A stretch of DNA of 64,000 bases from a virus. Its lineage: Duplodnaviria > Caudoviricetes. The position numbers and the translations under genes are program-made. Of this stretch, positions 4,175 through 37,364 are shown piece after piece (position 1 is the first letter of the stretch; each line of letters begins with the position of its first letter). The stretch covers positions 32,001 to 96,000 of IMG/VR virus record IMGVR_UViG_3300028591_000004, one strand, 5' to 3'. Under the pieces are notes generated by a model. That model ran no database searches. It saw only the letters and a list, made by a program, of their open reading frames with translations, and was not told where the DNA came from.

Positions 4175-5812
4175 TTAGAAATTACTGACAACACCGATAC
4201 ACGGAGTTCCGTGCCGGTGTTGTTTGATGTTGATTTTTTCGAGCTCACTGATGTAGTCGTTTCCCATAGCGAGAGCAGAATAACGGTCTTTATGCATTCC
4301 GGATCTGGGAACGTCGTAAAGGACATTGCCGCTTGATCCGACCTTTGCAACAACGTTATTCATTTCTATTTGAAGAGCGTCTGTTTCCAGAAAGTTCGCA
4401 AGCTCTTCCTTGGACATTCTTTTCCCTTCGGGTAATTCGTATTGTTTGTCTTTAACAAGGCGGTAAGAGTTAGGCAGTTCGAGTGTCTGTTTCTCGAGGG
4501 CAACTCTTAAGTTTGTGTAAATCCTTTGGTTCAAAGTATTTACAGCCCTGAAAGGATGAAGAGCCTGTATCGCGTCTGGATTGGAGAGTTCTTCGTCATC
4601 TACAACTAAAGGAGGATATTCTCTTCCGGATTCGTGATCTATCCATTCTTTGTCAAAGAACCTGTCGAAACTGTCGCCGATTCCTCTCGCGTCGTATACG
4701 ATTTTCTCTGTGTTGGGAAACTTTACATGAAAATATCGCCGAACTTCTTCGGCGAGATAATCCAGAGGCTTACCTTTATAAGACCTGATGTGAACAACCT
4801 TCTTTGCAAAAGATCCGTCTTTCTTTTCAGTGAATTTGTGGATCATAAGAATGCTGTTGTCTGCACTCTTTGCTTTGGAGGTTGCAATGTCCAGAGAAAT
4901 AATGTATCTGGATTTAGAGCCTTTAGGCTGGTCCATTTCGATAGCGTCTAAAGTACGGCAGCTCTGAACTAAATCGATGGGGAACGCAGAGTTCTCCGAA
5001 CCGCCTAAGAATTTGGATTCGTATTCCATTGCGAAGGTAGTTTCGGGATTGGCTCTCTGTTCCTCTTCGTAATACTTTGGTTTTGTAAGTCCTTCCGCGA
5101 TGGGTGTTTTGTAATGTAGAACACACGCAAAGTAAGACTTATCGCCTTTGGCCCGTTCCTGAACAATACGTTCGAATTCTTTGTAGAACGCATAGTTCTT
5201 AGGACAGGCAGAAGTAATATAAATTAATTTAGAGTCGAAATCTTCAAACCCGTAGGTTCTTGCGTTGTATCTCGTTTCGTTTCTGGTAGGGTTGACGACA
5301 GCCCTTAAGATGTCCATATCGACATCCCGGGCTTCATCGACAATAACCATCTTTGCACGTCTCGAGCGAGCACGGGCCATAGGAACTGAAGAGATAATGC
5401 TTCCGTTCTTTAATGTAACTGTTGATTCGTCCTTGCTGATAGACACATATGTTTTTGCGTTAGTAGGTTTGATCTCGTTCCTGAAGTTTTCGTTTTCGTT
5501 CGCGAGATCCCTTATCTTTTCCGCAATACGTGTAGCCTGGTCGGCTGTAGGAGCAACAACTAATACACTTGTTCCCGGATAAAGACATCCTAAGGAATGA
5601 GCGATAAACGCAGTCAGCCACGTTTTACCGTATCCACGTGGCGCAACAACAGCAGAGGTTGTTGCGTTCCCGACTTCTCTTGCAATGACGTGTTGTATGG
5701 GTGTTAATTTCACAGGCTTATAAGCCTGTTCAATATACATGTCCATATGTGTGCGGTAATAAATAACCTGTTTTTCTACCGCTTTCCAGTTTGTTATAAC
5801 TCCGGGTTTCAC
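4175..5812 (-). CDS. terL: Terminase large subunit
   Basis: Walker A APRGYGKT, Walker B VIVDEAR, coupling motif ITSA, nuclease motifs SLDIA and KDRYSA. Confidence 0.92.
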   Translation of the reverse strand: MKPGVITNWKAVEKQVIYYRTHMDMYIEQAYKPVKLTPIQHVIAREVGNATTSAVVAPRGYGKTWLTAFIAHSLGCLYPGTSVLVVAPTADQATRIAEKIRDLANENENFRNEIKPTNAKTYVSISKDESTVTLKNGSIISSVPMARARSRRAKMVIVDEARDVDMDILRAVVNPTRNETRYNARTYGFEDFDSKLIYITSACPKNYAFYKEFERIVQERAKGDKSYFACVLHYKTPIAEGLTKPKYYEEEQRANPETTFAMEYESKFLGGSENSAFPIDLVQSCRTLDAIEMDQPKGSKSRYIISLDIATSKAKSADNSILMIHKFTEKKDGSFAKKVVHIRSYKGKPLDYLAEEVRRYFHVKFPNTEKIVYDARGIGDSFDRFFDKEWIDHESGREYPPLVVDDEELSNPDAIQALHPFRAVNTLNQRIYTNLRVALEKQTLELPNSYRLVKDKQYELPEGKRMSKEELANFLETDALQIEMNNVVAKVGSSGNVLYDVPRSGMHKDRYSALAMGNDYISELEKINIKQHRHGTPCIGVVSNF

Positions 5813-6729
5813 GAAACATCACCCGCTTCGTCTTCCCGCATGGACTCTATAATGTAGGACAGCCCGTCTATCGCAACGTCGACAACATCCTTGGGCCATT
5901 CTATCTTTTCGATACATGGATATCCATGCGTTTCCAGATAAGCCGTTGTCTCAGCCCAACTGTTGATTCCACCCTTATCTCCTGGTTTGCGTTTGTTTGC
6001 GGCAAAGTTCCCCATACTTGCAAGAAGGTTGTAGGAGTTAACAGCGTTATTTAAATCCTGAATTTGACATCTTCCGGCAAGATAATCGTTCTGCATCTTG
6101 TCCACCGTCAAAGCAGCTTTTGCAAGTTTCTTTGCGTTGTCCCTTAACGAGACGTCCGCAAGGTCAAAGTCAGAATCCAATTCGTCGTAAAAGTTCTGGA
6201 GGTACTCCAGTTCGGAAGGTTTGAAGTCTCCGTTGAAAAAAGCATTGTACGTTTTAACGTTAGCATCTTTCTTCTTCGGTTCGTTGTCTACGACCTGTCC
6301 TGCTTCTTTCGACTCTTCGTATGTGTTGACGTTGATGTTTTGAGAATTATCGACATATTCGTAGTTAATCTGCATAACAGCAGGAACCTGTTCACAGGTC
6401 ATCTTTTCCAGAAATGATTCGCGCATATCTTCGGAAAGCTTCATGAATTTTGTGTTTTGAACAGCAACTCTTTCTGCTTTCTTTTTCGCGTTCTCCCAGA
6501 TCTTCTCATTCCACTTTCTGTCGTTCTCGAAAAAGTATTGTCTCATTTCATCCTTTGTCTGGATGGAGGCAACACACTTCTTGCACCACACATCTTTGCC
6601 TGCCTGTGCAAGCCAGTCCCGGTTAGAGTAAAACTCTGAGAGGTTCCGGATTTGATTGCAATGAAGGCAAATCTTTGTTACAGGAGGCTTCTTAGCTGTT
6701 TTACGAGGTTTGGATAATACAGTGCTCAT
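5809..6729 (-). CDS. Zn-finger protein, possible terminase small subunit
   Basis: CLHC...WCKKC N-terminus; overlaps the terL start by 4 nt. Confidence 0.5.
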   Translation of the reverse strand: MSTVLSKPRKTAKKPPVTKICLHCNQIRNLSEFYSNRDWLAQAGKDVWCKKCVASIQTKDEMRQYFFENDRKWNEKIWENAKKKAERVAVQNTKFMKLSEDMRESFLEKMTCEQVPAVMQINYEYVDNSQNINVNTYEESKEAGQVVDNEPKKKDANVKTYNAFFNGDFKPSELEYLQNFYDELDSDFDLADVSLRDNAKKLAKAALTVDKMQNDYLAGRCQIQDLNNAVNSYNLLASMGNFAANKRKPGDKGGINSWAETTAYLETHGYPCIEKIEWPKDVVDVAIDGLSYIIESMREDEAGDVS

Positions 6730-8716: not shown

Positions 8717-9211
8717 TCCTTCTCCCGGCTAAGCATCCGGGTTAACAACTGCTTAATTCGAAAAGAGCACCCAGCCGCAAACTGGATGCTCTTTTCGGGT
8801 TTTACCCGAACTGGAGTGCCTCCGGTATCAACGCAGTTGCAGCTGCGAAGAGAGGAGGGGTATCCATGCCGGATATCCGCCGGATGGGCGACGATTATGT
8901 TGTCGTCCTGAGGGGGAAGATCGTTAGATTCGAGTCCTACGATGCTGCGTACGCCGCGTGGGAGGAGGACTAGCGTCTTCACCATTCACTGTTATTTTAC
9001 CATAGGCACATGGTAAATACAAGCGTTTTCTATCGCTTTGAAATAGACCCTTGCCGTGGGAAGCGGCCTTTGCGGAAGCACTCCTGCCGCATCGTATCAG
9101 TCAGGGTTGACTACCCCGATTAGGGGCATCGCCTCGTCAGCCGTCAGTTCCACGAAACGGAACATTGCTCAAATATTTTGCTCAGCGGGAAACCGCAGAA
9201 AGGAAGGTACC

Positions 9212-11635
9212 ATGAATACTATCACTAAGATCAATCTCTTTGAGAACACCACTGAAGAAATTGCAGTATTCTCTTCCCAGTTCACCCGTAAGCTGGAGTC
9301 CATGGGTGTTGATGTGTCCAAAGCTATCGTCAAAGTCAATGCCAACACTCCCAAGGGAAAGAAGGACGAGACGGAAGAAGCCGAAGCCAAGGTTCGTGCT
9401 CTTCTGACCACCATGTGCAGTCAGGGTTATGTCCTGAACGGTGTTGCTTATCGTCCTTTCCTCGCCGGTGCTTCCGATGCTCGCAAGGCCACTTCCACCT
9501 GGATCGACGAGAAGATCCAGGCTGAACTCGGTCGTTGGTGCCTTTGCGGACTTCAGACCAAGGATATGACCATGGCTATCAACAAGTACATGGCATATCT
9601 GGGTCTGCTGACTTCTGCCAGCAAGCCTTTCGTCGAAGTTTTTGGCCGCACGGTTGATATCCGTCGTGTCGCGGTCGTTGCTGATCACGAGATCACCGTC
9701 AACGCCAAGGTTGACCTCGTGTCCATGTACAAAGTACAGAAGAACACTAATCGTTCTTTGGCGATCTGCACTTTCGACGGATTCGGTATCATTCGGGACA
9801 CTCTGACCGATGGCGAATCCGTTACGATTCGTGGTCCGTGGCTCAAGGCTTTCGTGCAGGCCACCAACTGGAGCGAAGTCGCTGCTTACAGCTTCTCCAA
9901 TGGCGGCGATGCCACGTTCAAGGACATCTTCGGCAACACCGTCAAGATGAAGGATGTTGACGTTATCCTGACGGCTTCCTGCTTCAAGGCTGCGAAGCTG
10001 TACAAGTCCTGGAAGCAGTATCAGGATGCGTTCGAAGCGTTCGGTCACGAGATCTGCGTTTGCGTTCGTGAACACGCTCCCAGCCTGAAGGGACTTCCTT
10101 ATCAGCAGGGTCAGACTCTGCTGGGCGATCAGGACGACGCTCTGAGCTTCATGATGCACGCCAAGAAGACCGTGTACAAGTATCATGACGCTTACGAAGC
10201 TGCGAGCCTTCTCCGCAAGGAGCATAGACTTGCTGCTCGGATGTATCCTGCTCTTCTGAACGAGAAGTTCACCGCAAAGAGCATTCAGGAGAAGTACGAG
10301 AGCAAGCGGAACGAGATGCTCGGTGGAAGGATTCCTGAAATGGGATACAACGCCTTCCTCGCTCCTGATATGACGGCGTTTGTGCAGCATCTCTTCAACA
10401 TGCCTGTAACAGGCTCCCTGAAGGCTGGAGAATGCTCCTGCGTCTCTTTCGAACAGGGTCCTGTGGACGTTACCCGGAATCCGCATCTGGACAACGCTCA
10501 TTGCATTCTGAACAATGTGAAGAACATGCCGTTCGCCACTCGCAAGAGCCCGACCATGTTCATCAACGTTCTGGATACGACCACCATCCAGCTTCGCGCT
10601 GACTATGATGGAGATCATATCCTTGCTTCTCAGGATGCGAAGCTCCTGTCCCTGGTCAACAAGACCTATGACGAGCTGAAGAACATTCCCTATGACTGGG
10701 ATGCTCCCTCTGCTCCGAAGGCTCCTGTGACCAAGTCCGCGATCTGCAGCTTCATCACGAATCTGCTTCACGGTTCTGAGATCGGCATTTATGCTGACAC
10801 TCTGACCAAGATGTGGAATAGTGAGTACAGCGCTGACACCTGCGGCTGGCTGACTTATGCAGGCAACGTGCTGATTGACTCTGCGAAGCATGGCTCCGTG
10901 AAGATCAAGAAGCCAGATGACGTGAAAGCTCTGTCCGCTGTTCCGCTGCCTGAGTTCTGCCGCTATGCCAAGGCCGACTCCGAGACTCCTGCGAACTCTT
11001 CCTACTGGGATGAGATTCGGGAGTACACCGGCACTCCTCGGTGCGAGTACTCCGGGTCTTTCCTGGATATGTACAGCCGCGCCATCAAGGAGAACGTTCC
11101 AGAAACCTTGACGATTGACGGCCTTGATGACGAGATCTTCGACCCCGCCGAGTTGATGATCAATCCTCATCGCAAGCTGATCCCCGGACTGACCCGTAGG
11201 GGAGTCTACAACAAGGAGACGAACACCTACGAGAACTGCGGCATCTTCCAGACTGTTGCGTTCCGTCATGCAGACGAATGGAACAAGCTGATTGCCGGCG
11301 AAGACATGTCTCATCGTGACGAGTGGGAGAAGTCCCGTCGCGAGATCGCTCTGAACGAGTTCATTACCTACTGCCGGGATCTGTATGCCGGTATGGGTAT
11401 CGACATCTCCAGCAAGAGCGACGACTGCATCCTGGACGCTGTCTACGATGCGGTTATTCGCGGCATCTTCAACGTCAAAATGACCGATGGCATGATGACT
11501 GCCGTTATGCAGTGCTTCTGGCTCTGCTTCGGCGATCGTGTTATCAAGACCCTTCAGTCCAAGAATCATCGCCTGAGTGACGACGACCTCGTCTTCGACG
11601 ATGACGATGAACTGTTCGACGACTCCGATTGCTAA
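9212..11635 (+). CDS. YonO-like single-subunit double-psi-barrel RNA polymerase 1
   Basis: Start re-set to ATG 9212 (SD AAAGGAAGG); motifs DGFG, TRNPHL, catalytic ADYDGDH, IDSAKHG of the YonO/cRdRP-like family. Confidence 0.85.
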   Translation: MNTITKINLFENTTEEIAVFSSQFTRKLESMGVDVSKAIVKVNANTPKGKKDETEEAEAKVRALLTTMCSQGYVLNGVAYRPFLAGASDARKATSTWIDEKIQAELGRWCLCGLQTKDMTMAINKYMAYLGLLTSASKPFVEVFGRTVDIRRVAVVADHEITVNAKVDLVSMYKVQKNTNRSLAICTFDGFGIIRDTLTDGESVTIRGPWLKAFVQATNWSEVAAYSFSNGGDATFKDIFGNTVKMKDVDVILTASCFKAAKLYKSWKQYQDAFEAFGHEICVCVREHAPSLKGLPYQQGQTLLGDQDDALSFMMHAKKTVYKYHDAYEAASLLRKEHRLAARMYPALLNEKFTAKSIQEKYESKRNEMLGGRIPEMGYNAFLAPDMTAFVQHLFNMPVTGSLKAGECSCVSFEQGPVDVTRNPHLDNAHCILNNVKNMPFATRKSPTMFINVLDTTTIQLRADYDGDHILASQDAKLLSLVNKTYDELKNIPYDWDAPSAPKAPVTKSAICSFITNLLHGSEIGIYADTLTKMWNSEYSADTCGWLTYAGNVLIDSAKHGSVKIKKPDDVKALSAVPLPEFCRYAKADSETPANSSYWDEIREYTGTPRCEYSGSFLDMYSRAIKENVPETLTIDGLDDEIFDPAELMINPHRKLIPGLTRRGVYNKETNTYENCGIFQTVAFRHADEWNKLIAGEDMSHRDEWEKSRREIALNEFITYCRDLYAGMGIDISSKSDDCILDAVYDAVIRGIFNVKMTDGMMTAVMQCFWLCFGDRVIKTLQSKNHRLSDDDLVFDDDDELFDDSDC

Positions 11636-22978: not shown

Positions 22979-23758
22979 ATGGCAAAGAAACTCGTAGCAG
23001 AAGTAACTAACAACGAAGGCGAACAGCAGGAAGTACAGTTCAATGAACAGACGGCGTCCGTGAGAGTAGAAATCAAGCGGGTCCCTGTAGAGAAAGCGCG
23101 TATCAAAATTGTCGGAGACTCTCCTTTGCTGGTCCATGCGTGGAGTGAGAAAGTCAAGAAAGAACTGCTTGCGAATATGCAGATGGACAAGCGGGAGAAA
23201 AAGCAGAAGACCCACGAAAAGAAAGACCCGTTTGCGGACTTTGTCGAAGCTGCTTATTGGATTACTCCGATGCCTGATGTTCGGGGTCTTGAACCCGAGA
23301 AGCAGATTGAACTGTTCGAAAAAGCAATCGACGACGGCGCCCAGTTTGGTTTCCCAGTTATTGCGTTTAAGAAGGCCGCTATTGCTGCCTGCTTGAGTTC
23401 TGGCTTGATTAAAAGTGTGTCTCTGATGCGGCGGTTGTTCCATGTCAATGCTGTGAATGGAGCTCATGTTAAGTCTTCTCAGGAGCTGGCCATTCTGAAG
23501 ATTGAAGAGCCTCCGGAACTGTCTGAAGACGTTGTTAAGGTTGGTCCTTTCAACAATCGTCAGCCAGACCTGAGATATCGCCCTTCTTTCAGGAAGTGGA
23601 GTACAGAACTGGAACTGAGCCTGATTAAAACCGGAATGTTTACGATGGAAGATATTGTTAATGCTATTGATATGGGTGGTTTTATGAACGGCGTTGGAGA
23701 ATGGCGAACCGAAAAAGACGGTGAATTCGGCAATTATCATGTCGAGATTACAGATTAA
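22979..23758 (+). CDS. Stand-alone RAMP/Cas7-like RNA-binding protein (putative)
   Basis: N-terminal IKIVGDSPLLVH strand, GFPVIAFKKA helix-start motif, and C-terminal Gly-rich loop GGFMNGVGEWRTEKDGEFGNYHV, i.e. RAMP layout; strong SD. Confidence 0.65.
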   Translation: MAKKLVAEVTNNEGEQQEVQFNEQTASVRVEIKRVPVEKARIKIVGDSPLLVHAWSEKVKKELLANMQMDKREKKQKTHEKKDPFADFVEAAYWITPMPDVRGLEPEKQIELFEKAIDDGAQFGFPVIAFKKAAIAACLSSGLIKSVSLMRRLFHVNAVNGAHVKSSQELAILKIEEPPELSEDVVKVGPFNNRQPDLRYRPSFRKWSTELELSLIKTGMFTMEDIVNAIDMGGFMNGVGEWRTEKDGEFGNYHVEITD

Positions 23759-23766
23759 GGAGGACT

Positions 23767-24294
23767 TTGATGGCCGCATTTGAATATCGGTTTAAAATGC
23801 CCAAGATGCATAAGGTTTCCGCGGATGTTGCTGGTAAGATTTGTCAGGAGTTGTCTGATTCAGAAGACGGTTTGACTCCCAAGCGACTGGTCGATGTAAG
23901 TCGTAATAAGAACGCTCCTCTTCACGATGAATTTGAATGGGACGACTCCATTGCCGGAGAAAAATATCGTGAGCAGCAAGCTCAGACACTGATCCAGCAT
24001 TTGGTTATTGTTCAAACGGACAATGAGGCTGAAAGGATCGTCAAGCTTACAAAGCAAAACAAAGACTCAGAAGATGCTGAAGTAAAAGATTATCCGGCAG
24101 ATCGTGGATTTGTTTCTACCGGGGAGCATAACACTCGATATGTTCCTCTTGCTTCGGCTTTAACTAATGATTTATGGAGAGCCAGCTTGCTGGAGTCTGC
24201 ACGAAAGGACAGTAGAATTTTTGTGTCTAAGTACAACAGGTTGGAAGAGCTGGCTGAGATTGTCGACGATATGAACAGATTCCTTGGTGCCTGA
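23767..24294 (+). CDS. Partner protein of unknown function between the RAMP-like gene and the array
   Basis: SD AAGGAGG; LTPKRLVDVSR...PLHDEFEWDDSIAGEKYREQQA motif; co-oriented and tightly packed. Confidence 0.7.
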   Translation: MMAAFEYRFKMPKMHKVSADVAGKICQELSDSEDGLTPKRLVDVSRNKNAPLHDEFEWDDSIAGEKYREQQAQTLIQHLVIVQTDNEAERIVKLTKQNKDSEDAEVKDYPADRGFVSTGEHNTRYVPLASALTNDLWRASLLESARKDSRIFVSKYNRLEELAEIVDDMNRFLGA

Positions 24295-24350
24295 AAGTAA
24301 GGAGACACTATAAGATCTCCCGGAGTGGATGAAAGGTCTGAACATGGTCA

Positions 24351-24773
24351 GGCAGCCATGGCGAGTACGGGTCAGTTGTTTTCGGGTAAGCAATGTCAAG
24401 GCAGCCGAGGTGAATTTTGTAAAGGTACGGTGCGCACGGGCAGCCATGTTCTGTTGAGTTGAGCTCTGCCGATGCACGTTAAGTTAAGTTGTGGCAGCCT
24501 AGGATGGGTATTGCACGTTTTGTTCCGCATCGGAGTGGCAGCCACGGTAAGTTCCGTTGGGTTTGTTGCGTGGTGAAGTGCGGCAGCCATGGTGTGTACC
24601 GGAGCTATTGGGAGTGCAAAGGTTTGGCAGCCTTGGTCAGTTGCGTAGTGTTACGGACGTGTATGTTAAGTTTCGGAACGGCAGCCTAGGTATGTACAGG
24701 TCTGTATGGGTCTCGTGCGAAATGGCAGCCAAGGACAGGAGCGTAATGTATAGTCCGCATGGGACGGGCAGCC
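24351..24773 (+). repeat. Array of 10 GGCAGCC repeats with 5-nt-phased variable spacers (putative guide ncRNA array, not a canonical CRISPR)
   Basis: GGCAGCC at 24351, 24400, 24439, 24493, 24537, 24582, 24626, 24680, 24724, 24767; spacers of 42, 32, 47, 37, 38, 37, 47, 37, 36 nt. Confidence 0.9.
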
Positions 24774-24883
24774 GATATAAAATTGTCCGTGCAATGTCAC
24801 AGCCAATCCAATTCGCGATGGGGAGACGCGATCAACAAATATCTCCCTGCTTTTATTAAACGAATAGTGAATTCACCAGTCCC

Positions 24884-24908
24884 GCCGCAAGCGGCTGGAG
24901 ATAAAGAG
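24884..24908 (+). promoter_or_regulatory. Class-A hairpin motif
   Basis: GCCGC-AA-GCGGC-tgga-GATAAAGAG. Confidence 0.5.
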
Positions 24909-24921
24909 AAAGGAGCCGCAG

Positions 24922-25284
24922 ATGCAACTCATCCGACTTAATCTCGACGGGACAACCGAATTAATACCATTCAACCCAAAAGATTCATTTTCCCAAATCA
25001 TCGAATGCGAATACATCGAAATAGTTCGACCAAGAAACTGCAAGCATTCGCTCATCGTAGACGAAGAGGGAAGGTTGAAAGAAAACAAAATAAACATTTT
25101 AGCGTCATATCTTTACGGCACACATTTTCATTATCAGCCTATTATGGGAACAGTGCTTGTTTGTGATATTACGCCATACGGAGAAATAACCGGACTAACT
25201 GATGATTCTGCGATTGAATTTAAAAAGAAACTAGATGACATATATTTGTTTGCGTTTAACATGATAAAGAACGCACTTGAATGA
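24922..25284 (+). CDS. DUF3846-like phage protein
   Basis: IEIV...LIVDEEGRLK...N..AS.LY...PIMGTVLV. Confidence 0.7.
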   Translation: MQLIRLNLDGTTELIPFNPKDSFSQIIECEYIEIVRPRNCKHSLIVDEEGRLKENKINILASYLYGTHFHYQPIMGTVLVCDITPYGEITGLTDDSAIEFKKKLDDIYLFAFNMIKNALE

Positions 25285-25530
25285 TTGTGCAGGCAAATTA
25301 TCTTTTTGAGGATGATGTTTTTTGAAAATTCAGCAAAAGATCGTAACTCTTAAAAACGAAAATCAACTGTATGAAGCAATGATGCGCAGGCCGGATGCAA
25401 CATACGAAGAGAAAGGCAATTACGGTCGGATGATCATGCAAAACAATAAAGAAATCAAAGAGCTGAAAAAAGAATTATATCAGGCAAAAAATGCTAAAGA
25501 ACTCTTAATTGAATAAAGCAAGAGGTTTAG

Positions 25531-25734
25531 ATGACAAAAGAAAAATATCAGGATGTTAAAGGCCTGTATGAAGGCAAACATGCTCCGAAAGAATATCATG
25601 TCTGGATGGTTATAGGCCCGGCAGGACCAATTATAGAGCGGAATATCTGGGGCCTGGATCAGGCTAAACAGTTTGTTCGCGGATCCTGGGATCACGAAAT
25701 CAGACGAGTTGAAGATGGGAGAATTATACCATGA
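25531..25734 (+). CDS. Small hypothetical protein
   Basis: SD GAGG; ATGA coupling to next gene. Confidence 0.55.
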   Translation: MTKEKYQDVKGLYEGKHAPKEYHVWMVIGPAGPIIERNIWGLDQAKQFVRGSWDHEIRRVEDGRIIP

Positions 25735-26345
25735 CATGGACACCTGTAGCGGAACAATTGCCTAAGGATTATATTAACTTGTTGATCACAGTTAAAGAAA
25801 AGAAAACAGGTAAAAGGTATGTAATGTCCTGCGTGTGGAGCAGTGTCATTGATCTTGAAACAGGAGAAATTATCGGCCCTCCGACTTTTGCGGATTTGAT
25901 TTCCGAAGACGGAAGAATGATTTTTGTAGACTACCAAAAAAACAAAAGCATTGAAATTTTAGCGTGGATGCCATATCCAAGTCCGTACGAAGACCAATTC
26001 AGGGTTATCGTTGCCGGATCAAGATCTTTCAACGATTATGCTTTGCTGAAAGACAAGCTTGACAAGGCGTTTTTAAAGCATAAACCAACATCTATCGTAT
26101 GTGGTGAAGCAAGTGGTGCCGACACTCTCGGAAGGCGTTACGCTGAAGAAAACGGCATTAAGATAGACAGTTTTCCGGCGGATTGGAATACGCATGGAAA
26201 GCAGGCCGGCTATATCAGGAACGAAGAAATGGCAGGCAATGCGGATGCGTTGATTGCTTTTCATGTAAATAATTCAGCCGGAACAAGGCACATGATTAAT
26301 ACAGCGAAGAAAATGGGGCTTCAAGTAAGAGTAATTAACATTTAA
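25731..26345 (+). CDS. DUF551-like plus SLOG (YspA/DUF2493-like) fusion
   Basis: WTPVAEQLP...AWMPYPSPY then VIVAGSRSF..Y, CGEASGAD, AGYIRNEEM, GTRHMI. Confidence 0.8.
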   Translation: MTWTPVAEQLPKDYINLLITVKEKKTGKRYVMSCVWSSVIDLETGEIIGPPTFADLISEDGRMIFVDYQKNKSIEILAWMPYPSPYEDQFRVIVAGSRSFNDYALLKDKLDKAFLKHKPTSIVCGEASGADTLGRRYAEENGIKIDSFPADWNTHGKQAGYIRNEEMAGNADALIAFHVNNSAGTRHMINTAKKMGLQVRVINI

Positions 26346-31277: not shown

Positions 31278-32074
31278 AGAAATTAAAACTAAGCAAGCAG
31301 GATAAAGAAAAGTTATTGGCTGAATTTTCGAAGAAAATTGATAAGTATGAAGATGAACTCAAAGACACAGAGATTTCTTTCGAAAAAAATCTCAGCGAAA
31401 AAGCAAAAGAAAAAATAACAATTTATTTTACGCCTGAGGCATACATTGAGTCTCAGGCGCTGGTAAAGAATTTTGATGGCGAAGTAGGCTGGCATGGGCT
31501 AATCGAAAAGATCGATGACAATGCGTACATTGTCACAGGGATTATTGTGTATCCTCAGGTTGTAAATGGAGCAAGGACTCTTGATCCAACAAAGACAAAC
31601 AAATGGTATGAGGATCACGAAGATGTTCTGGATCTGCTACACTTTCAGGCTCATTCACATGTAAATATGTCAACCAGTCCTTCGTCTACAGATATGGAAA
31701 ACCAAAAGAATATCGTTCGGAATCTGCAAGGAGAAGGATTTCAACTCTTTCAGATATGGAATAAATCCGGAGATATTAATTCATTCCTTTATGATCTAGA
31801 CAATAATGTTATGTATGACCGTAACGATATTCAGATTGAGATCGTAAAAGAAGATAACTCGACAGTCTCTGAATTTATTCAGAAAGCGAAAGAAATGGTA
31901 GAGTCCATGCCTGTAACTGTTCCTAAGAAAACCGTCACAGCAGTAACTCCGAAATATGGCAGTTATGCATGGACAAACAATGATACCGTAGAAAATAAAT
32001 TAACTAATCCATTTTATTGGAAAGATGAAACTTCAGAAGGAGAGTGGGGCTATGAATCTCGCAAAATCATTTGA
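31274..32074 (+). CDS. JAB/MPN+ metallopeptidase
   Basis: EVGWHG plus JAMM motif HSHVNMSTSPSSTD; start re-set to ATG 31274. Confidence 0.85.
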   Translation: MKKLKLSKQDKEKLLAEFSKKIDKYEDELKDTEISFEKNLSEKAKEKITIYFTPEAYIESQALVKNFDGEVGWHGLIEKIDDNAYIVTGIIVYPQVVNGARTLDPTKTNKWYEDHEDVLDLLHFQAHSHVNMSTSPSSTDMENQKNIVRNLQGEGFQLFQIWNKSGDINSFLYDLDNNVMYDRNDIQIEIVKEDNSTVSEFIQKAKEMVESMPVTVPKKTVTAVTPKYGSYAWTNNDTVENKLTNPFYWKDETSEGEWGYESRKII

Positions 32075-32717
32075 GTTTTTTAACCCTGATTTATTCCATG
32101 AACAGATCCACATCATTGGGTGTGGATCTGTAGGTTCTACGGTAGCTGAACTGATTACAAGATTCGGCATCGAAGAAGTATGCCTATATGATTTCGATGT
32201 TGTAGAAGAACATAACCTGGTGAACCAGATGTTCACGCGAGATGATTTATATAAGCCGAAAACAGAATGCGTGAAGAACAATTTATTGAAAATAAATCCA
32301 GATATGAACATCATCTTATTTGACCGGGGATATATAGGACAAAAACTGTCAGGTTATGTTTTTCTGTGTGTAGATAAGATAGAGATAAGAAAGAGAATAG
32401 TTGAAGAAAACAAATTCAACGACACAATCAAAGCAATGTTTGATTTCAGAACCGGATTGACTGATTGCCAGCATTATGCTGCCGACTGGAGCAGGATGGA
32501 TCAAAAGAAATTGCTTTTGAGTAGAATGAATTTCACACACGAAGAAGCACAGCAAGCCGTACCAATGTCAGCTTGCAGAGTTGCGCTTTGTGTGGCACCA
32601 ACAGTAAGACTTGTATCTAATATCGGAGTCTGCAATTTTATTAATTTTGTAAAAGGAAATGGATTAAAGAATGCGATAGTTGCAGACGCATTTAATTTTA
32701 TGATCGAAGAATTTTAA
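32052..32717 (+). CDS. ThiF/MoeB (E1-like) adenylyltransferase
   Basis: IIGCGSVGS, DFDVVEEHNL.NQ, KPKTE, FLCVD; start re-set to ATG 32052. Confidence 0.92.
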   Translation: MNLAKSFEFFNPDLFHEQIHIIGCGSVGSTVAELITRFGIEEVCLYDFDVVEEHNLVNQMFTRDDLYKPKTECVKNNLLKINPDMNIILFDRGYIGQKLSGYVFLCVDKIEIRKRIVEENKFNDTIKAMFDFRTGLTDCQHYAADWSRMDQKKLLLSRMNFTHEEAQQAVPMSACRVALCVAPTVRLVSNIGVCNFINFVKGNGLKNAIVADAFNFMIEEF

Positions 32718-32718
32718 A

Positions 32719-32976
32719 TCACAATGAAAATTCGGTTATACCGGTCTGCTAATGTAAGTAACAGAAACACTTTGCCCGACAAGAAAGGGAACGCGGATCC
32801 GCCGGCCGCACGTCGAAGGCAGCCTGAATAACACCTCCATTTCTCGTGCTAAGACGAAATTTCTAGACTATGCACAAGTTTTATTACAGCTGAGAGATTT
32901 AAATCGACTGGTTTGAGATCGCTCGGGACCTGTAAGTAGCAGCTCTAGATCCAGCAACTAACTAATTAGATTGTGA
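32719..32976 (+). ncRNA. Retron-type msr-msd-like ncRNA, upstream copy
   Basis: Terminal IR TCACAAT/ATTGTGA; unpaired G32726 in CAATGAAAA; ends TTAGATTG. Confidence 0.65.
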
Positions 32977-32985
32977 GATGAAAAA

Positions 32986-34122
32986 ATGTATTACTTTACA
33001 ATAAGGCAAAATAGAAAACCAGTTCAACTAAAATTCGAAGATGTATTGTTTGGAAATGTTGTAATAAATTCATTAAATACAGAATCTGATAAGACCGGTA
33101 CCATAACCAGAGCATTAGACGAAATACCTAAAGAGTTAACTGAAAAAGTAGATATAAAATCGATTATTGAATGGTTGAAAGAATTCAATAATAAAAACAG
33201 TTCTTTGTTTGAAGCTAATAGAGAAACACTGTATAGGCATTATAAAATTCCAAAGAAAACAGGTGGATGGAGGCCCATAGATGAACCTTGTCCGGAATTG
33301 CAAAATGCATTAGGAGAATTGGCCTCTTTTCTACAAAGAGATGTTGGTGTTCTTTATCATACATCTGCATTTGCATACATAGAAGACAGATGCGTTGTAG
33401 ACGTATTGAAAAAACATGCCAAGTTTAAGAGTAATTGGTTCCTGAAAACGGATTTAAGCGGATTCTTTCCTCACACTACTCTTGAATTTACAATGAAGAT
33501 GTTAAGTAAGATCTTTCCTCTATGTGAAGTTATGAAAGATCCGGAAGGGGGAAAAGCCTTAACTAAGGCAATTTCTTTGGGGTTCTTAAACAATGGATTA
33601 CCGCAGGGAACAAAGCTTTCGCCGTGTTTGACAAATTTCATTATGATTCCAATTGACCATCGACTGGCTGGTGAATTCTCCAAGCGTAAAATGGTTTATA
33701 CAAGATATGCTGATGATATGCATATTTCAGCGCAGGAAGAGTTCCCATTTAAACAGATGGTGAAATTTATTGAAAATACTTTTAAAGAATTTAGTGCCCC
33801 GTATGAAATTAAGGATGAGAAAGTTCACTATGGAAGTGTAAAAGGGAAGAACTGGATGCTTGGCTTAATGCTGAATGGCGAGTACAAGATAACAGTAGGA
33901 TATAGAACTAAGAAATATTTTAAAGCGGCTTTGTGTAACTTTATTCTTGATACTAAGAACAATAAACCTTGGGACATTGATGATGTTCAGCATCTGTCTG
34001 GTCAGCTTTCATATTACAGGATGGTTGAAGAGAATTATTTTAATAAAATTATCAATACAGCAAATAAAAAGTGGAACGTAGATGCAGAACAAATGATGAA
34101 ATCTTATTTGAAAATAGCATAA
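32986..34122 (+). CDS. Retron-like reverse transcriptase
   Basis: IPKKTGGWRPIDEP, SAFAY, KTDLSGFFP, LPQGTKLSP, YTRYADD; 378 aa; no maturase or endonuclease domain. Confidence 0.9.
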   Translation: MYYFTIRQNRKPVQLKFEDVLFGNVVINSLNTESDKTGTITRALDEIPKELTEKVDIKSIIEWLKEFNNKNSSLFEANRETLYRHYKIPKKTGGWRPIDEPCPELQNALGELASFLQRDVGVLYHTSAFAYIEDRCVVDVLKKHAKFKSNWFLKTDLSGFFPHTTLEFTMKMLSKIFPLCEVMKDPEGGKALTKAISLGFLNNGLPQGTKLSPCLTNFIMIPIDHRLAGEFSKRKMVYTRYADDMHISAQEEFPFKQMVKFIENTFKEFSAPYEIKDEKVHYGSVKGKNWMLGLMLNGEYKITVGYRTKKYFKAALCNFILDTKNNKPWDIDDVQHLSGQLSYYRMVEENYFNKIINTANKKWNVDAEQMMKSYLKIA

Positions 34123-34535: not shown

Positions 34536-37364
34536 ATGGGAGAGAAGAGCTATCTAAAAAATCAAGTCTATTTACCCGGTTTCAACAGTTACGATCTTTT
34601 TACTGAGCAGGAATTTGAACAGTATATGAAGATCGTAGAAGCAAAAAACGAACTGAACAGAATTGAAAAAGATCAGAAATCACTAAAACAAAGTCTTATT
34701 ACAAAAAAAAAGGAAGCACAATCCAAGTTAAATGAATTAATCAACAAGCATGATGGTATTCCCAGAGAAGTCCGACTAAAAAATGTTATTTATCATCCTG
34801 ATTCAGAAGATCAATTTCCGGCTGGAGTTACGTGGCATAATCTGAATTTTTCAAAGAAAATCTCTGAGTTTTCATCTGAGCTTACAAGAGCGATGAAGCT
34901 TGAAAGAGATTATACTTTGGATCAGATTGTTGTGAAATGGAAATCCTTGGATGTAATGCATCAGTTGATTACAGATGGATTCTATATGAAGATTCTGAAT
35001 CCGGATGGATCAACAACAAACAAACATTATCATTTTTTCACAGCATCAGCCGGTCAATTAAGACGAGATAAACTTGTCTTTATTTCCGATGAAATGTGGG
35101 AGAAAATAAAAAAAAGAATTGAATGTGGACTTCCATGGGATGTAATCAATGCTCATGGAGGTATCTGTACAAATAAATTAATGGCTTATACTGCACTACC
35201 TGGAAGTGCAACAGATGAGTGGACAGACTTTGATTTGGATCGATGCATCGTCATCAATCAATTCAAAGGCAAAGTCACTGACAGGATGATGTACATTAAC
35301 CATGATTATACATACAAAGAAGAAGTATGTACCGTTGAAATTGATCACACAGATGGATGCGGTATGATGCTCCCGTCTGTTTCGGATTTCAACTTCATGG
35401 TTAGAGGGCCATATGTCAAAGGACTGTTGTGTGTATTTGACTATTTAAAGTTCTGTGAAGAGAAAGGTGTTCGGCCTGTCATTGTCGACTATTGGGGCTT
35501 AGAACACGATCTTGTAAAAGAAAACATACAGATCATCTTCACGGAAAGCATGGTCAAAATGGCAAAATTCTATGATTCATGGCAGGATTTCAAAGACAAA
35601 TGCCGTTCATGCGGTGCAATGTTCGGCAAAATGAACTATGAAGAAGAAGAAATAGATGACACAACAGTATGTTATCAGTTTACTCAAACGCTTACGGATT
35701 TCACAGACGAGGAAATAAAAGAGTATACAAAGCGGGAACATGATCGTATCATGAATGTCACAAAAGACAAAGATACGATGATCAGAACACTGAAAGGTGA
35801 TGTGAAATCTGATAATCCTTATAAAGCAGCGTTGGCTTATTATCCGGAAATGTTATGGGAAGGATATACGAGAAGCCAGCTAAAAGACACGAGGAAGAGG
35901 ATGCTTCTCGATGCGAAATCCGGAAAGATAAGGATGCTTAATAAACGTCTGTTTGCTATTCCGGATTTATATGCGGCTTGTGAGTATTGGTTCTGTCATA
36001 TTGAAGAACCGGAAGGGCTGCTGAAGAATGGAGAAATAGCGTGCTCTGTCTTTAGAAAATATAATGAAGCTGATGTTTTAAGGAGTCCCCATTTATACTG
36101 CGAGCATCGAATTGAAAAAATTTCGCATGATCCGGAAGTGTATAAATGGTTTAATACAAATGGTGTGTACACAAGCTGTAAAGATTTAATTTCTCGCGTT
36201 TTGCAATTCGATGTTGACGGAGATCAGCTGAATGTAATAGTTGATCCGTTGTTTGTTTCCGTAGCAAAACGCAACATTGAAAAATACGATGTAATACCTC
36301 TCTTCTACGAAGCGAATAAGCCCAAAGCAGAACCCGTTACAAAAGAGTCCCTATATAACGGGTTGAAAAGAGCTCACGATTACTCAAGTGGCGGTATTAC
36401 ATCAATAGGAGAGATATCCAACATGCTCACACGGCTTTGGAATCGTGAAAATCCTGACAGAGTAGCGGCAGCATGGTTAACCATGTTCAATAATTTAACA
36501 ATTGACGCCGCTAAAACCGGGCAGCTGTCCCATTATAAAGACTACCCGGCTGTAGCCAGAAAGATTAACAAAGCCATAGGAGGGAAAAACGGTCGGTTAC
36601 CTTATTGGTTCGCTTTTTCAAAGAACGGCCGAAAAGCTCCGGCTCCGGGAAAAAAGAAACGAAAGTACCTTGCTCCCAACAATTCAACAATGAATAGAAT
36701 TTGTGCTGCTTTCAGTGACATTGGCAACATCAATCTCCACAACGCAGACATTTCACCATTTAACTGGCAGATGTTTTTATCAGAACCATGCAAAGATACG
36801 AATCCTGAAATGTGTAAAGTATTTTGCGACATGGACAACATTAACATTTCTGGGGTCATAGAGGCTAAAGATTTTGATTACTTTACCGAAAGAGAATCAA
36901 AATCGAAATATGAACTTTTAGCCAAGATGATCATCGAAGAAATGACCGACCGATTCGGTCCGCTGGAAAACTCTTATCCGTATATTGTGAAGTTTCTGTT
37001 TGCGGATAAAGCAGTTGATAAAGCGGTTCATAAGCAAATGTTCTGGAGAGTTTATGGAGACATTGCTTTAAAGAACCTGAAGCAGAATCTTAGCAACTAT
37101 AAAGTCTGTAAAAACTGTAGTATGAAATACCCCATATGGGCAGAAACCCATACCTGTATAAAAGATAGCACTGGTTTTGTAACCTGTATTGACTGCGGTG
37201 CTGTTCGTCCAAGAATGAATTCAAAACAGCAGCGCTGTGAAATCTGTCAGGATATATACAATAAAACATCAGACTCAGTCCGAAAAAGAAACAAATACAA
37301 GAAATTAAAGGAAGAGGAACAACAACGTATTACTTCCTTGGTCTCGCGCTTAGAGAAGACATAA
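34536..37364 (+). CDS. YonO-like single-subunit RNA polymerase 2
   Basis: ASAGQLR, TDGCGM, RSPHL, catalytic FDVDGDQ, IDAAKT; C-terminal Cys-rich Zn ribbons. Confidence 0.9.
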   Translation: MGEKSYLKNQVYLPGFNSYDLFTEQEFEQYMKIVEAKNELNRIEKDQKSLKQSLITKKKEAQSKLNELINKHDGIPREVRLKNVIYHPDSEDQFPAGVTWHNLNFSKKISEFSSELTRAMKLERDYTLDQIVVKWKSLDVMHQLITDGFYMKILNPDGSTTNKHYHFFTASAGQLRRDKLVFISDEMWEKIKKRIECGLPWDVINAHGGICTNKLMAYTALPGSATDEWTDFDLDRCIVINQFKGKVTDRMMYINHDYTYKEEVCTVEIDHTDGCGMMLPSVSDFNFMVRGPYVKGLLCVFDYLKFCEEKGVRPVIVDYWGLEHDLVKENIQIIFTESMVKMAKFYDSWQDFKDKCRSCGAMFGKMNYEEEEIDDTTVCYQFTQTLTDFTDEEIKEYTKREHDRIMNVTKDKDTMIRTLKGDVKSDNPYKAALAYYPEMLWEGYTRSQLKDTRKRMLLDAKSGKIRMLNKRLFAIPDLYAACEYWFCHIEEPEGLLKNGEIACSVFRKYNEADVLRSPHLYCEHRIEKISHDPEVYKWFNTNGVYTSCKDLISRVLQFDVDGDQLNVIVDPLFVSVAKRNIEKYDVIPLFYEANKPKAEPVTKESLYNGLKRAHDYSSGGITSIGEISNMLTRLWNRENPDRVAAAWLTMFNNLTIDAAKTGQLSHYKDYPAVARKINKAIGGKNGRLPYWFAFSKNGRKAPAPGKKKRKYLAPNNSTMNRICAAFSDIGNINLHNADISPFNWQMFLSEPCKDTNPEMCKVFCDMDNINISGVIEAKDFDYFTERESKSKYELLAKMIIEEMTDRFGPLENSYPYIVKFLFADKAVDKAVHKQMFWRVYGDIALKNLKQNLSNYKVCKNCSMKYPIWAETHTCIKDSTGFVTCIDCGAVRPRMNSKQQRCEICQDIYNKTSDSVRKRNKYKKLKEEEQQRITSLVSRLEKT

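Follow-up and report, generated by a model that had tools for sequence, protein, structure and literature searches.

We found that the segment 22979-24860 of a phage genome is very probably a VIPR locus, composed of a vipr gene, a vap-like gene, a leader and a vrRNA array of nine units. It lies in a 64,000-nt stretch of DNA, hereafter the window, taken from a virus record of 150,780 bp that has terminal repeats (bases 32001-96000 of that record). The locus is a further case of VIPR, with a relaxed scaffold, short guides and heptamer (GGCAGYC) punctuation. Its parts, numbered from the first base of the window, are the following.

22979..23758, + strand, vipr, encoding a 259-aa Cas7-like RAMP protein (P0001) that matches SUSP1 Vipr
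23767..24294, + strand, vap-like accessory gene, 175 aa (P0002), phrog_15946, conserved 3' of vipr
24295..24350, + strand, conserved leader that separates the stop codon of vap from the first GGCAGCC
24351..24773, + strand, predicted vrRNA array of 9 units punctuated by 10 GGCAGCC marks
24351-24399, + strand, array unit U1, between GGCAGCC marks (as are all units below)
24400-24438, + strand, array unit U2
24439-24492, + strand, array unit U3
24493-24536, + strand, array unit U4
24537-24581, + strand, array unit U5
24582-24625, + strand, array unit U6
24626-24679, + strand, array unit U7
24680-24723, + strand, array unit U8
24724-24766, + strand, array unit U9
24820..24857, + strand, candidate terminator in the centroid fold, hairpin GGGGAGA/UCUCCCU with a U-run after it

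VIPR (Viral Interference Programmable Repeat) is described in three 2026 preprints as a CRISPR-related DNA silencer (10.64898/2026.04.26.720920, 10.64898/2026.04.26.720927, 10.64898/2026.10.15.759431). It consists of the Vipr RAMP protein, an accessory vap gene and vrRNAs of 9-16 GGY/NN pentamers (10.64898/2026.04.26.720920). One Vipr protomer occupies each repeat, so that GGY is buried and NN is presented (10.64898/2026.04.26.720920, 10.64898/2026.04.26.720927). The NN dinucleotides pair with DNA, one base being skipped per dinucleotide, and the skipped base is mostly the wobble position of a codon, by which synonymous escape is blunted (10.64898/2026.04.26.720920). The preliminary description of our window, made from the raw sequence alone, had proposed a gapped guide (NNx) that skips one target base per dinucleotide and ignores wobble positions. 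Since the VIPR papers describe just such a skip-one, wobble-blind code, that proposal coincides with the published one; for the present locus it is supported by homology and by one clade relative, as detailed below.

Judged by sequence comparison, 22979..23758 is a Vipr related to that of SUSP1; such minimal RAMP proteins have an RRM core, a G-loop and a thumb. Used as a single sequence in phmmer, the protein matched PDB 36pp_D ('SUSP1 Vipr protein') with an E value of 3.8e-5, and a profile of 27 Vipr homologs matched the same entry with 3.6e-10. The AF2 model (pLDDT 85.7) gave as best Foldseek matches the Csm3, Cmr4 and type VII Cas7 chains at E about 1e-4. More specifically, H53, R201, E241, W242 and R243, which are invariant among the 27 homologs, align to SUSP1 H17, R138, D177, W178 and R179. 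Among these SUSP1 residues are those that hold two guanines in the cryo-EM work (10.64898/2026.04.26.720927). The G-loop GVGEWR aligns to SUSP1 GVGDWR, the YRP motif aligns at R138, and N237 is found at the place of SUSP1 C173 in the Y-pocket. At 259 aa the protein is longer than the 202-aa SUSP1 Vipr, and in the last 60 residues at the C terminus the two share a likeness of only about 30%. The nearest Vipr homologs in Clostridia MAGs are about 40% identical.

The accessory gene follows vipr directly and belongs to a family of 150-190 aa proteins that is found at this place, on the same strand, in 56 of 64 GTDB loci; a family member also lies 3' of vipr in related viral contigs. Searches of the protein against Pfam and NCBIfam gave no match. 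Its structure model is of good confidence (pLDDT 88.7), and the resemblance of the fold to winged-helix proteins is weak, with a best Z of 5.9 that lies below the noise level. The leader of about 60 nt behind the gene has a mean column identity of ~80% in five related phages, far above that of the array bodies. No consensus sigma-70 promoter was called in it; it may serve as a promoter, a processing signal or a handle. The leader also holds an inverted repeat, GGAGA...TCTCC, of which both sides are altered in two sister phages (GAAGA...TCTT-C), and which could form an RNA hairpin or serve as a signal for processing. The candidate terminator at the other end is weak: its loop measures 15 nt, the z-score of the fold is non-significant and it is not among the calls of the consensus scan. 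RNA-library contigs from sheep gut (four runs, three studies) cover the locus and show neither ends, strand nor transcription.

Within 24351-24773, GGCAGCC occurs in ten exact copies; the rest of the 64-kb window has three, of which two are on the + strand and the third is on the - strand. The copies are spaced by 49, 39, 54, 44, 45, 44, 54, 44 and 43 nt, and seven of these nine values leave a remainder of 4 on division by 5. The units that the marks delimit are built from NN-G-[G/T]-[T/A] pentamers, with 7-10 NN dinucleotides in each, and the pentamer register moves by one base at each GGCAGCC. Looking at the 67 pentamers of the array, we find G at position 3 in 56, G or T at position 4 in 56 and T or A at position 5 in 57, while positions 1 and 2 have a near-uniform composition. 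The autocorrelation of G along the array peaks at lags 5 and 10. The motif GGCAGCCNNGKNNNGKNNNGK matched the 150,780-bp phage genome seven times in the forward and zero times in the reverse direction, its backwards control gave zero matches, and no second comparable pentamer array exists elsewhere in that genome. Taking positions 1-2 of the pentamers between successive GGCAGCC marks, we reproduced letter for letter the seven dinucleotide strings (U1-U4, U6-U8) that the preliminary description had listed. Its peptide reading of U3, I-L-E-E-L-E-T-K-K-V, is one valid reading of AT. CT. GA. GA. CT. GA. AC. AA. AA. GT. U5 (45 nt) and U9 (43 nt), the two that remain, contain small indels by which the pentamer register is lost, and they may be decaying guides. 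A 50-nt unit that is irregular in a like manner is common to two sister phages. Known RNA families did not emerge from an Rfam scan of 23500-25500, which returned chance-level matches only, and the array had no blastn match among 50,697 phage records. A first motif scan for three GGCAGCC within 32-60 nt was discarded; among the matches listed, it returned unrelated, mostly coding repeats.

Arrays of like build were detected in unrelated phages when we scanned viral contigs for the motif. These related arrays use GGCAGCC or GGCAGTC marks with spacings of 4 mod 5, vipr and the accessory gene recur beside them, and their pentamers read NNGGC in high-GC and NNG[G/T]T in low-GC contigs. A set of 64 GTDB Vipr loci extends the family to Clostridia, Alphaproteobacteria, Actinomycetota, Bacteroidota and others; here runs of at least six NNG[G/T] pentamers were present on the vipr strand in 63 of 64 loci and on the opposite strand in 24 of 64. 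Closest to the window are four sister phages, whose Vipr proteins are 83, 80, 73 and 68% identical to ours. They keep the synteny, vipr, the accessory gene, the leader, the scaffold and the GGCAG[C/T]C marks, and their arrays comprise 4-15 units with unrelated NN strings. For all five phages together (39 regular units, 309 pentamers), positions 1, 2, 4 and 5 have entropies of 1.94, 1.97, 1.58 and 1.43 bits, with G at position 3 in 278 pentamers, G or T at position 4 in 266 and a base other than G at position 5 in 306. More importantly, the sole guide common to two sisters differs at 0 of 16 NN positions and at 6 of 21 scaffold positions (Fisher p 0.023). Because NN is unchanged and the scaffold has changed, we conclude that NN is the selected part and that positions 4-5 drift, free within limits. 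SD-like motifs precede 69 of 121 ORFs of the phage, compared to 10 of 121 in a control window.

Further members of the branch differ in their marks. Alphaproteobacterial prophage relatives (loci L226, L200, L203, L219, L196 and L188, about 5050-6100 in each) carry NNGGC arrays with GGCAGGC marks, from which it follows that the branch-wide core of the mark is GGCAG plus a one-base register shift. The cultured Gordonia phages Pipp, ODay, UmaThurman and Ecliptus encode Vipr homologs about 30% identical to that of the window. In Pipp (MN234179), gene 43 (L335, 3129-3398), annotated as a 'hypothetical protein' CDS right after the Vipr homolog, gene 42, is an NNGGC pentamer array and thus probably a mis-annotated vrRNA array.

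The surroundings of the locus hold several other features. On the 3' side of the array (24922-26345), a DUF3846 gene is followed by a YAcAr/SLOG-domain gene (25731-26345), which has a 57%-identical homolog about 1.7 kb from a related array on contig L138. Elsewhere in the window, a ThiF-family E1-like gene (32025-32717) adjoins a reverse transcriptase gene (RVT_1, 32986-34122); a lone GGCAGCC at 32818 sits between the two, and there is no pentamer array at that place. Two large phrog_8308 paralogs of 859 and 942 aa occupy 9056-11635 and 34536-37364, the second directly downstream of the reverse transcriptase.

Compared with the systems of Escherichia phage SUSP1 and a Pseudomonas fulva prophage, which are the type II reference, the locus shares one small RAMP protein whose G-binding residues are the same, a two-gene operon with an accessory gene (vap-like here), the flanking non-coding tandem pentamers, the location on a phage and the lack of a self-target. 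The tandem pentamers with their fixed triplet and hypervariable NN adjoin vipr on the same strand. Different from SUSP1-type VIPR, the scaffold is G-[G/T]-[T/A/C] instead of GGY; such a G-K-H scaffold can be counted as a 'related consensus', the term used in the description of the seven VIPR types (10.64898/2026.04.26.720920). Guides are also shorter, with 7-10 NN per unit where 9-16 are published, and the array of nine units is located entirely 3' of vap. In addition, the conserved structured 3' tail after the repeat tract is absent from our array: the units abut through GGCAGCC, and where SUSP1 VIPR has a pseudoknot tail of about 40 nt, we find the 7-nt GGCAGYC mark with its one-base shift. 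Since the structured tail is given as a type II trait that is not common to all seven types (10.64898/2026.04.26.720920), its absence counts against type II only. The abutting guides, with a register that moves by one base per boundary, resemble the 'staggered arrays' of vrRNAs with 1-nt overlap, a comparison that is based on a figure legend (10.64898/2026.04.26.720920, fig. S18 legend).

By the published mechanism, the array would be transcribed on the + strand and the vrRNAs would be expressed as small RNAs and bound by Vipr. The Vipr protomers would polymerise along each unit, one per pentamer, burying the scaffold triplet G-[G/T]-[T/A/C], which is GGY in the published case, and presenting the two variable bases. 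The NN string would pair with double-stranded DNA that carries the same dinucleotides one skipped base apart (NNx). The skipped base would usually be the wobble position in a gene of a rival mobile element, the transcription of which would be silenced. Through its one-base break of the 5-nt register, GGCAGCC would separate one guide from the next, and the marks are probably ends or processing points of a 'staggered' array. Transcription and processing, the 1-nt skip of this scaffold variant and the natural targets are inferred from that mechanism.

The skip rule itself could be probed in a relative of the clade, a Mesorhizobium prophage with a Vipr about 31% identical to that of the window, GGCAGGC marks and the canonical GGC scaffold. 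We searched the first clean unit of nine dinucleotides from its array, the sole relative's guide tried, against 151 Mesorhizobium genomes. With a skip of 1 we obtained four matches at no more than two mismatches, of which two were perfect (18/18). The loci of the two perfect matches are 98% identical, and we therefore treat these matches as a single event; both are in codon phase inside a DUF3383/tail-sheath gene. A skip of 2 furnished zero matches at up to one mismatch in the 151 genomes, and a skip of 0 gave no perfect match and one with a single mismatch, compared to three for the control. The result supports the view that the Vipr-vap branch would use NNx and target phage, based on one guide of a relative with the GGC scaffold.

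With the guides of our own array the picture is different, as no target rose above the level of a candidate. For the self-target search, the seven regular guides were compared with shuffled guides on the 150.8-kb genome, and their scores stayed within the nulls at skips 0-2; skip 3 returned the array itself. The preliminary description had seen no self-target by eye, and the best NNx scores, which lie within the shuffled nulls of this genome, bear this out. VIPR is likewise published as being without self-targets (10.64898/2026.04.26.720920). We then have the 39 guides on the five phage genomes (0.6 Mb, arrays masked), where 0, 1, 1 and 1 exceeded the shuffled maximum at skips 0, 1, 2 and 3, and a scan of 1.3 Mb of other loci, which gave no new target. 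Large collections were scanned for exact matches at skip 1 with U1, U3 and U7. Exact NNx matches of U3 and U7 numbered zero in viral_contigs and metagenome_contigs. U1, with its 18 informative bases, gave three exact NNx matches in viral_contigs against one for the reversed control, which is chance level. An early U1 result in two of five genomes was not upheld either: 401 Clostridia genomes gave three matches at up to one mismatch compared to five for the control, and none of the three was in a long frame. Thus, the enrichment over shuffled controls that the preliminary description had looked for does not appear with this array's guides, neither in its own genome, the sister phages and the 1.3 Mb of loci nor for U1, U3 and U7 in the collections.

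One of the three U1 matches is nevertheless worth following as a candidate target, a lead rather than a finding. The first match is on a high-GC contig and out of wobble phase, and the second is in phase in an unrelated 418-aa ORF. The third, an NNx match of 18/18 that is in codon phase, falls within a 256-aa resolvase-family (small serine recombinase) gene of a 10.7-kb provirus record; the same record has genes for a large serine recombinase, a D5-like primase, YqaJ and Sak. The matched site encodes IDRQVRNIK, just past the catalytic-serine motif. Among 69 homologous recombinase loci, U1 matches the NN positions with 18/18 in one, 17/18 in 51 and 16/18 in 11, hence with at least 16/18 in 63 of 69 family members, and the skipped bases vary. 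This conservation follows from homology and is therefore not independent support for the target. Against the candidate, none of the other guides of the window converges on the recombinase element or on the other U1-matched contigs, and relatives of the element in the phage collection come from human faeces, the RNA libraries that hold the window from sheep gut. The counts in Clostridia genomes weaken it as well. The target of SUSP1 VIPR is of the same class, a recombinase; that one was proven experimentally (10.64898/2026.10.15.759431).

Periodic guides held by a RAMP protein are familiar from Class 1 CRISPR-Cas, where the thumb of the Cas7 backbone flips guide bases at fixed intervals, one base in a period of 6. 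Our Vipr shares with Csm3, Cmr4 and type VII Cas7 the RAMP fold and, by the published mechanism, the principle of one protomer per periodic guide segment. Unlike in these systems, the VIPR period is 5 with three bases buried and the pairing is gapped. Direct repeats of 24-40 nt, as in CRISPR, are absent from 24200-24950, where all repeat families are built on the 7-mer. A 5-nt rhythm is also known from TRAP-binding RNA, which has (G/U)AG triplets with 2-3-nt spacers. The array is similar in that a protein-bound triplet would alternate with free spacer bases. Different from TRAP sites, the bases after the fixed G are semi-fixed, no A is conserved, the partner is a RAMP protein and not the MtrB ring, and the spacers carry information; (G/U)AG triplets every 5-6 nt are not found, and A precedes the fixed G in only 21 of 67 pentamers. 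Readings as a TRAP-like element, a sigma-54 promoter, an iteron or pac site or a Chi cluster were dropped when the RAMP gene was recognised.

Other explanations of the locus have to be weighed against the VIPR reading. One could imagine that this is a VIPR array in which the G-[G/T]-[T/A/C] clade reads by another rule, either with a different skip or with a contribution of positions 4-5. These positions are indeed partly fixed (1.58 and 1.43 bits), the Y-pocket residue C173 of SUSP1 is N237 here, and six of the seven regular guides lack a candidate target in searches whose large collections were scanned with U1, U3 and U7. Alternative repeat types are moreover listed with rules that are untested (10.64898/2026.04.26.720920, Methods). 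We nonetheless regard another rule as unlikely, given that the G-contacting residues are conserved, that the guide shared by two sisters keeps NN while positions 4-5 drift, and that the guide of the same clade is perfect at skip 1 only, although that relative has the canonical GGC scaffold.

The array could also be a protein-binding RNA in which NN is a neutral spacer, whether as a TRAP-like sponge or as a decoy by which the Vipr of a rival is sequestered. A near-uniform NN composition and the lack of a significant target for this array would fit, and decoy and 'solo' vrRNAs have been described in satellites and phages (10.64898/2026.10.15.759431). Yet the cognate vipr and vap lie directly upstream, the one shared guide keeps NN while its scaffold drifts, and position 2 lacks the A required in TRAP sites; even the published decoys still act through NN pairing. 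We hence judge a sponge or decoy to be quite improbable. Finally, ten 7-mers of the same orientation in 420 bp of non-coding DNA, next to a gene for a weakly winged-helix-like accessory protein, could bring to mind a binding site of a phage protein for replication (iterons), partition or packaging. We give such DNA-level repeats hardly any credence: the 5-nt rhythm of G is confined to the gene strand, the units are wholly different between sister phages although the 7-mer is kept, and the array travels with the RAMP gene across phyla.

In summary, the VIPR locus is an example from a large gut phage with a relaxed form of the GGY scaffold and with short guides set off by punctuation. It bears on how much of the repeat Vipr needs and on how guide ends can be set without a tail. 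One may speculate further, in a proposal that we hold only tentatively and doubt more than we trust, that the Vipr-vap branch (Clostridia, Alphaproteobacteria, Actinomycetota including the Gordonia phages, and Bacteroidota) is an uncharacterised VIPR type. In it, the 7-nt GGCAG[C/T/G]C mark would take the place of the structured tail and set the guide length by breaking the filament register, Vipr would tolerate G-[G/T]-[not G], and guides like U1 would be aimed at the I-D/E-R-Q-V-R-N-I-K motif of small serine recombinases. If this were true, a single 18-base guide would cover a whole family of rival elements. The locus offers nine concrete guides and one candidate target class, the recombinases, and the cultured Gordonia phages of the same branch are a possible bench model.
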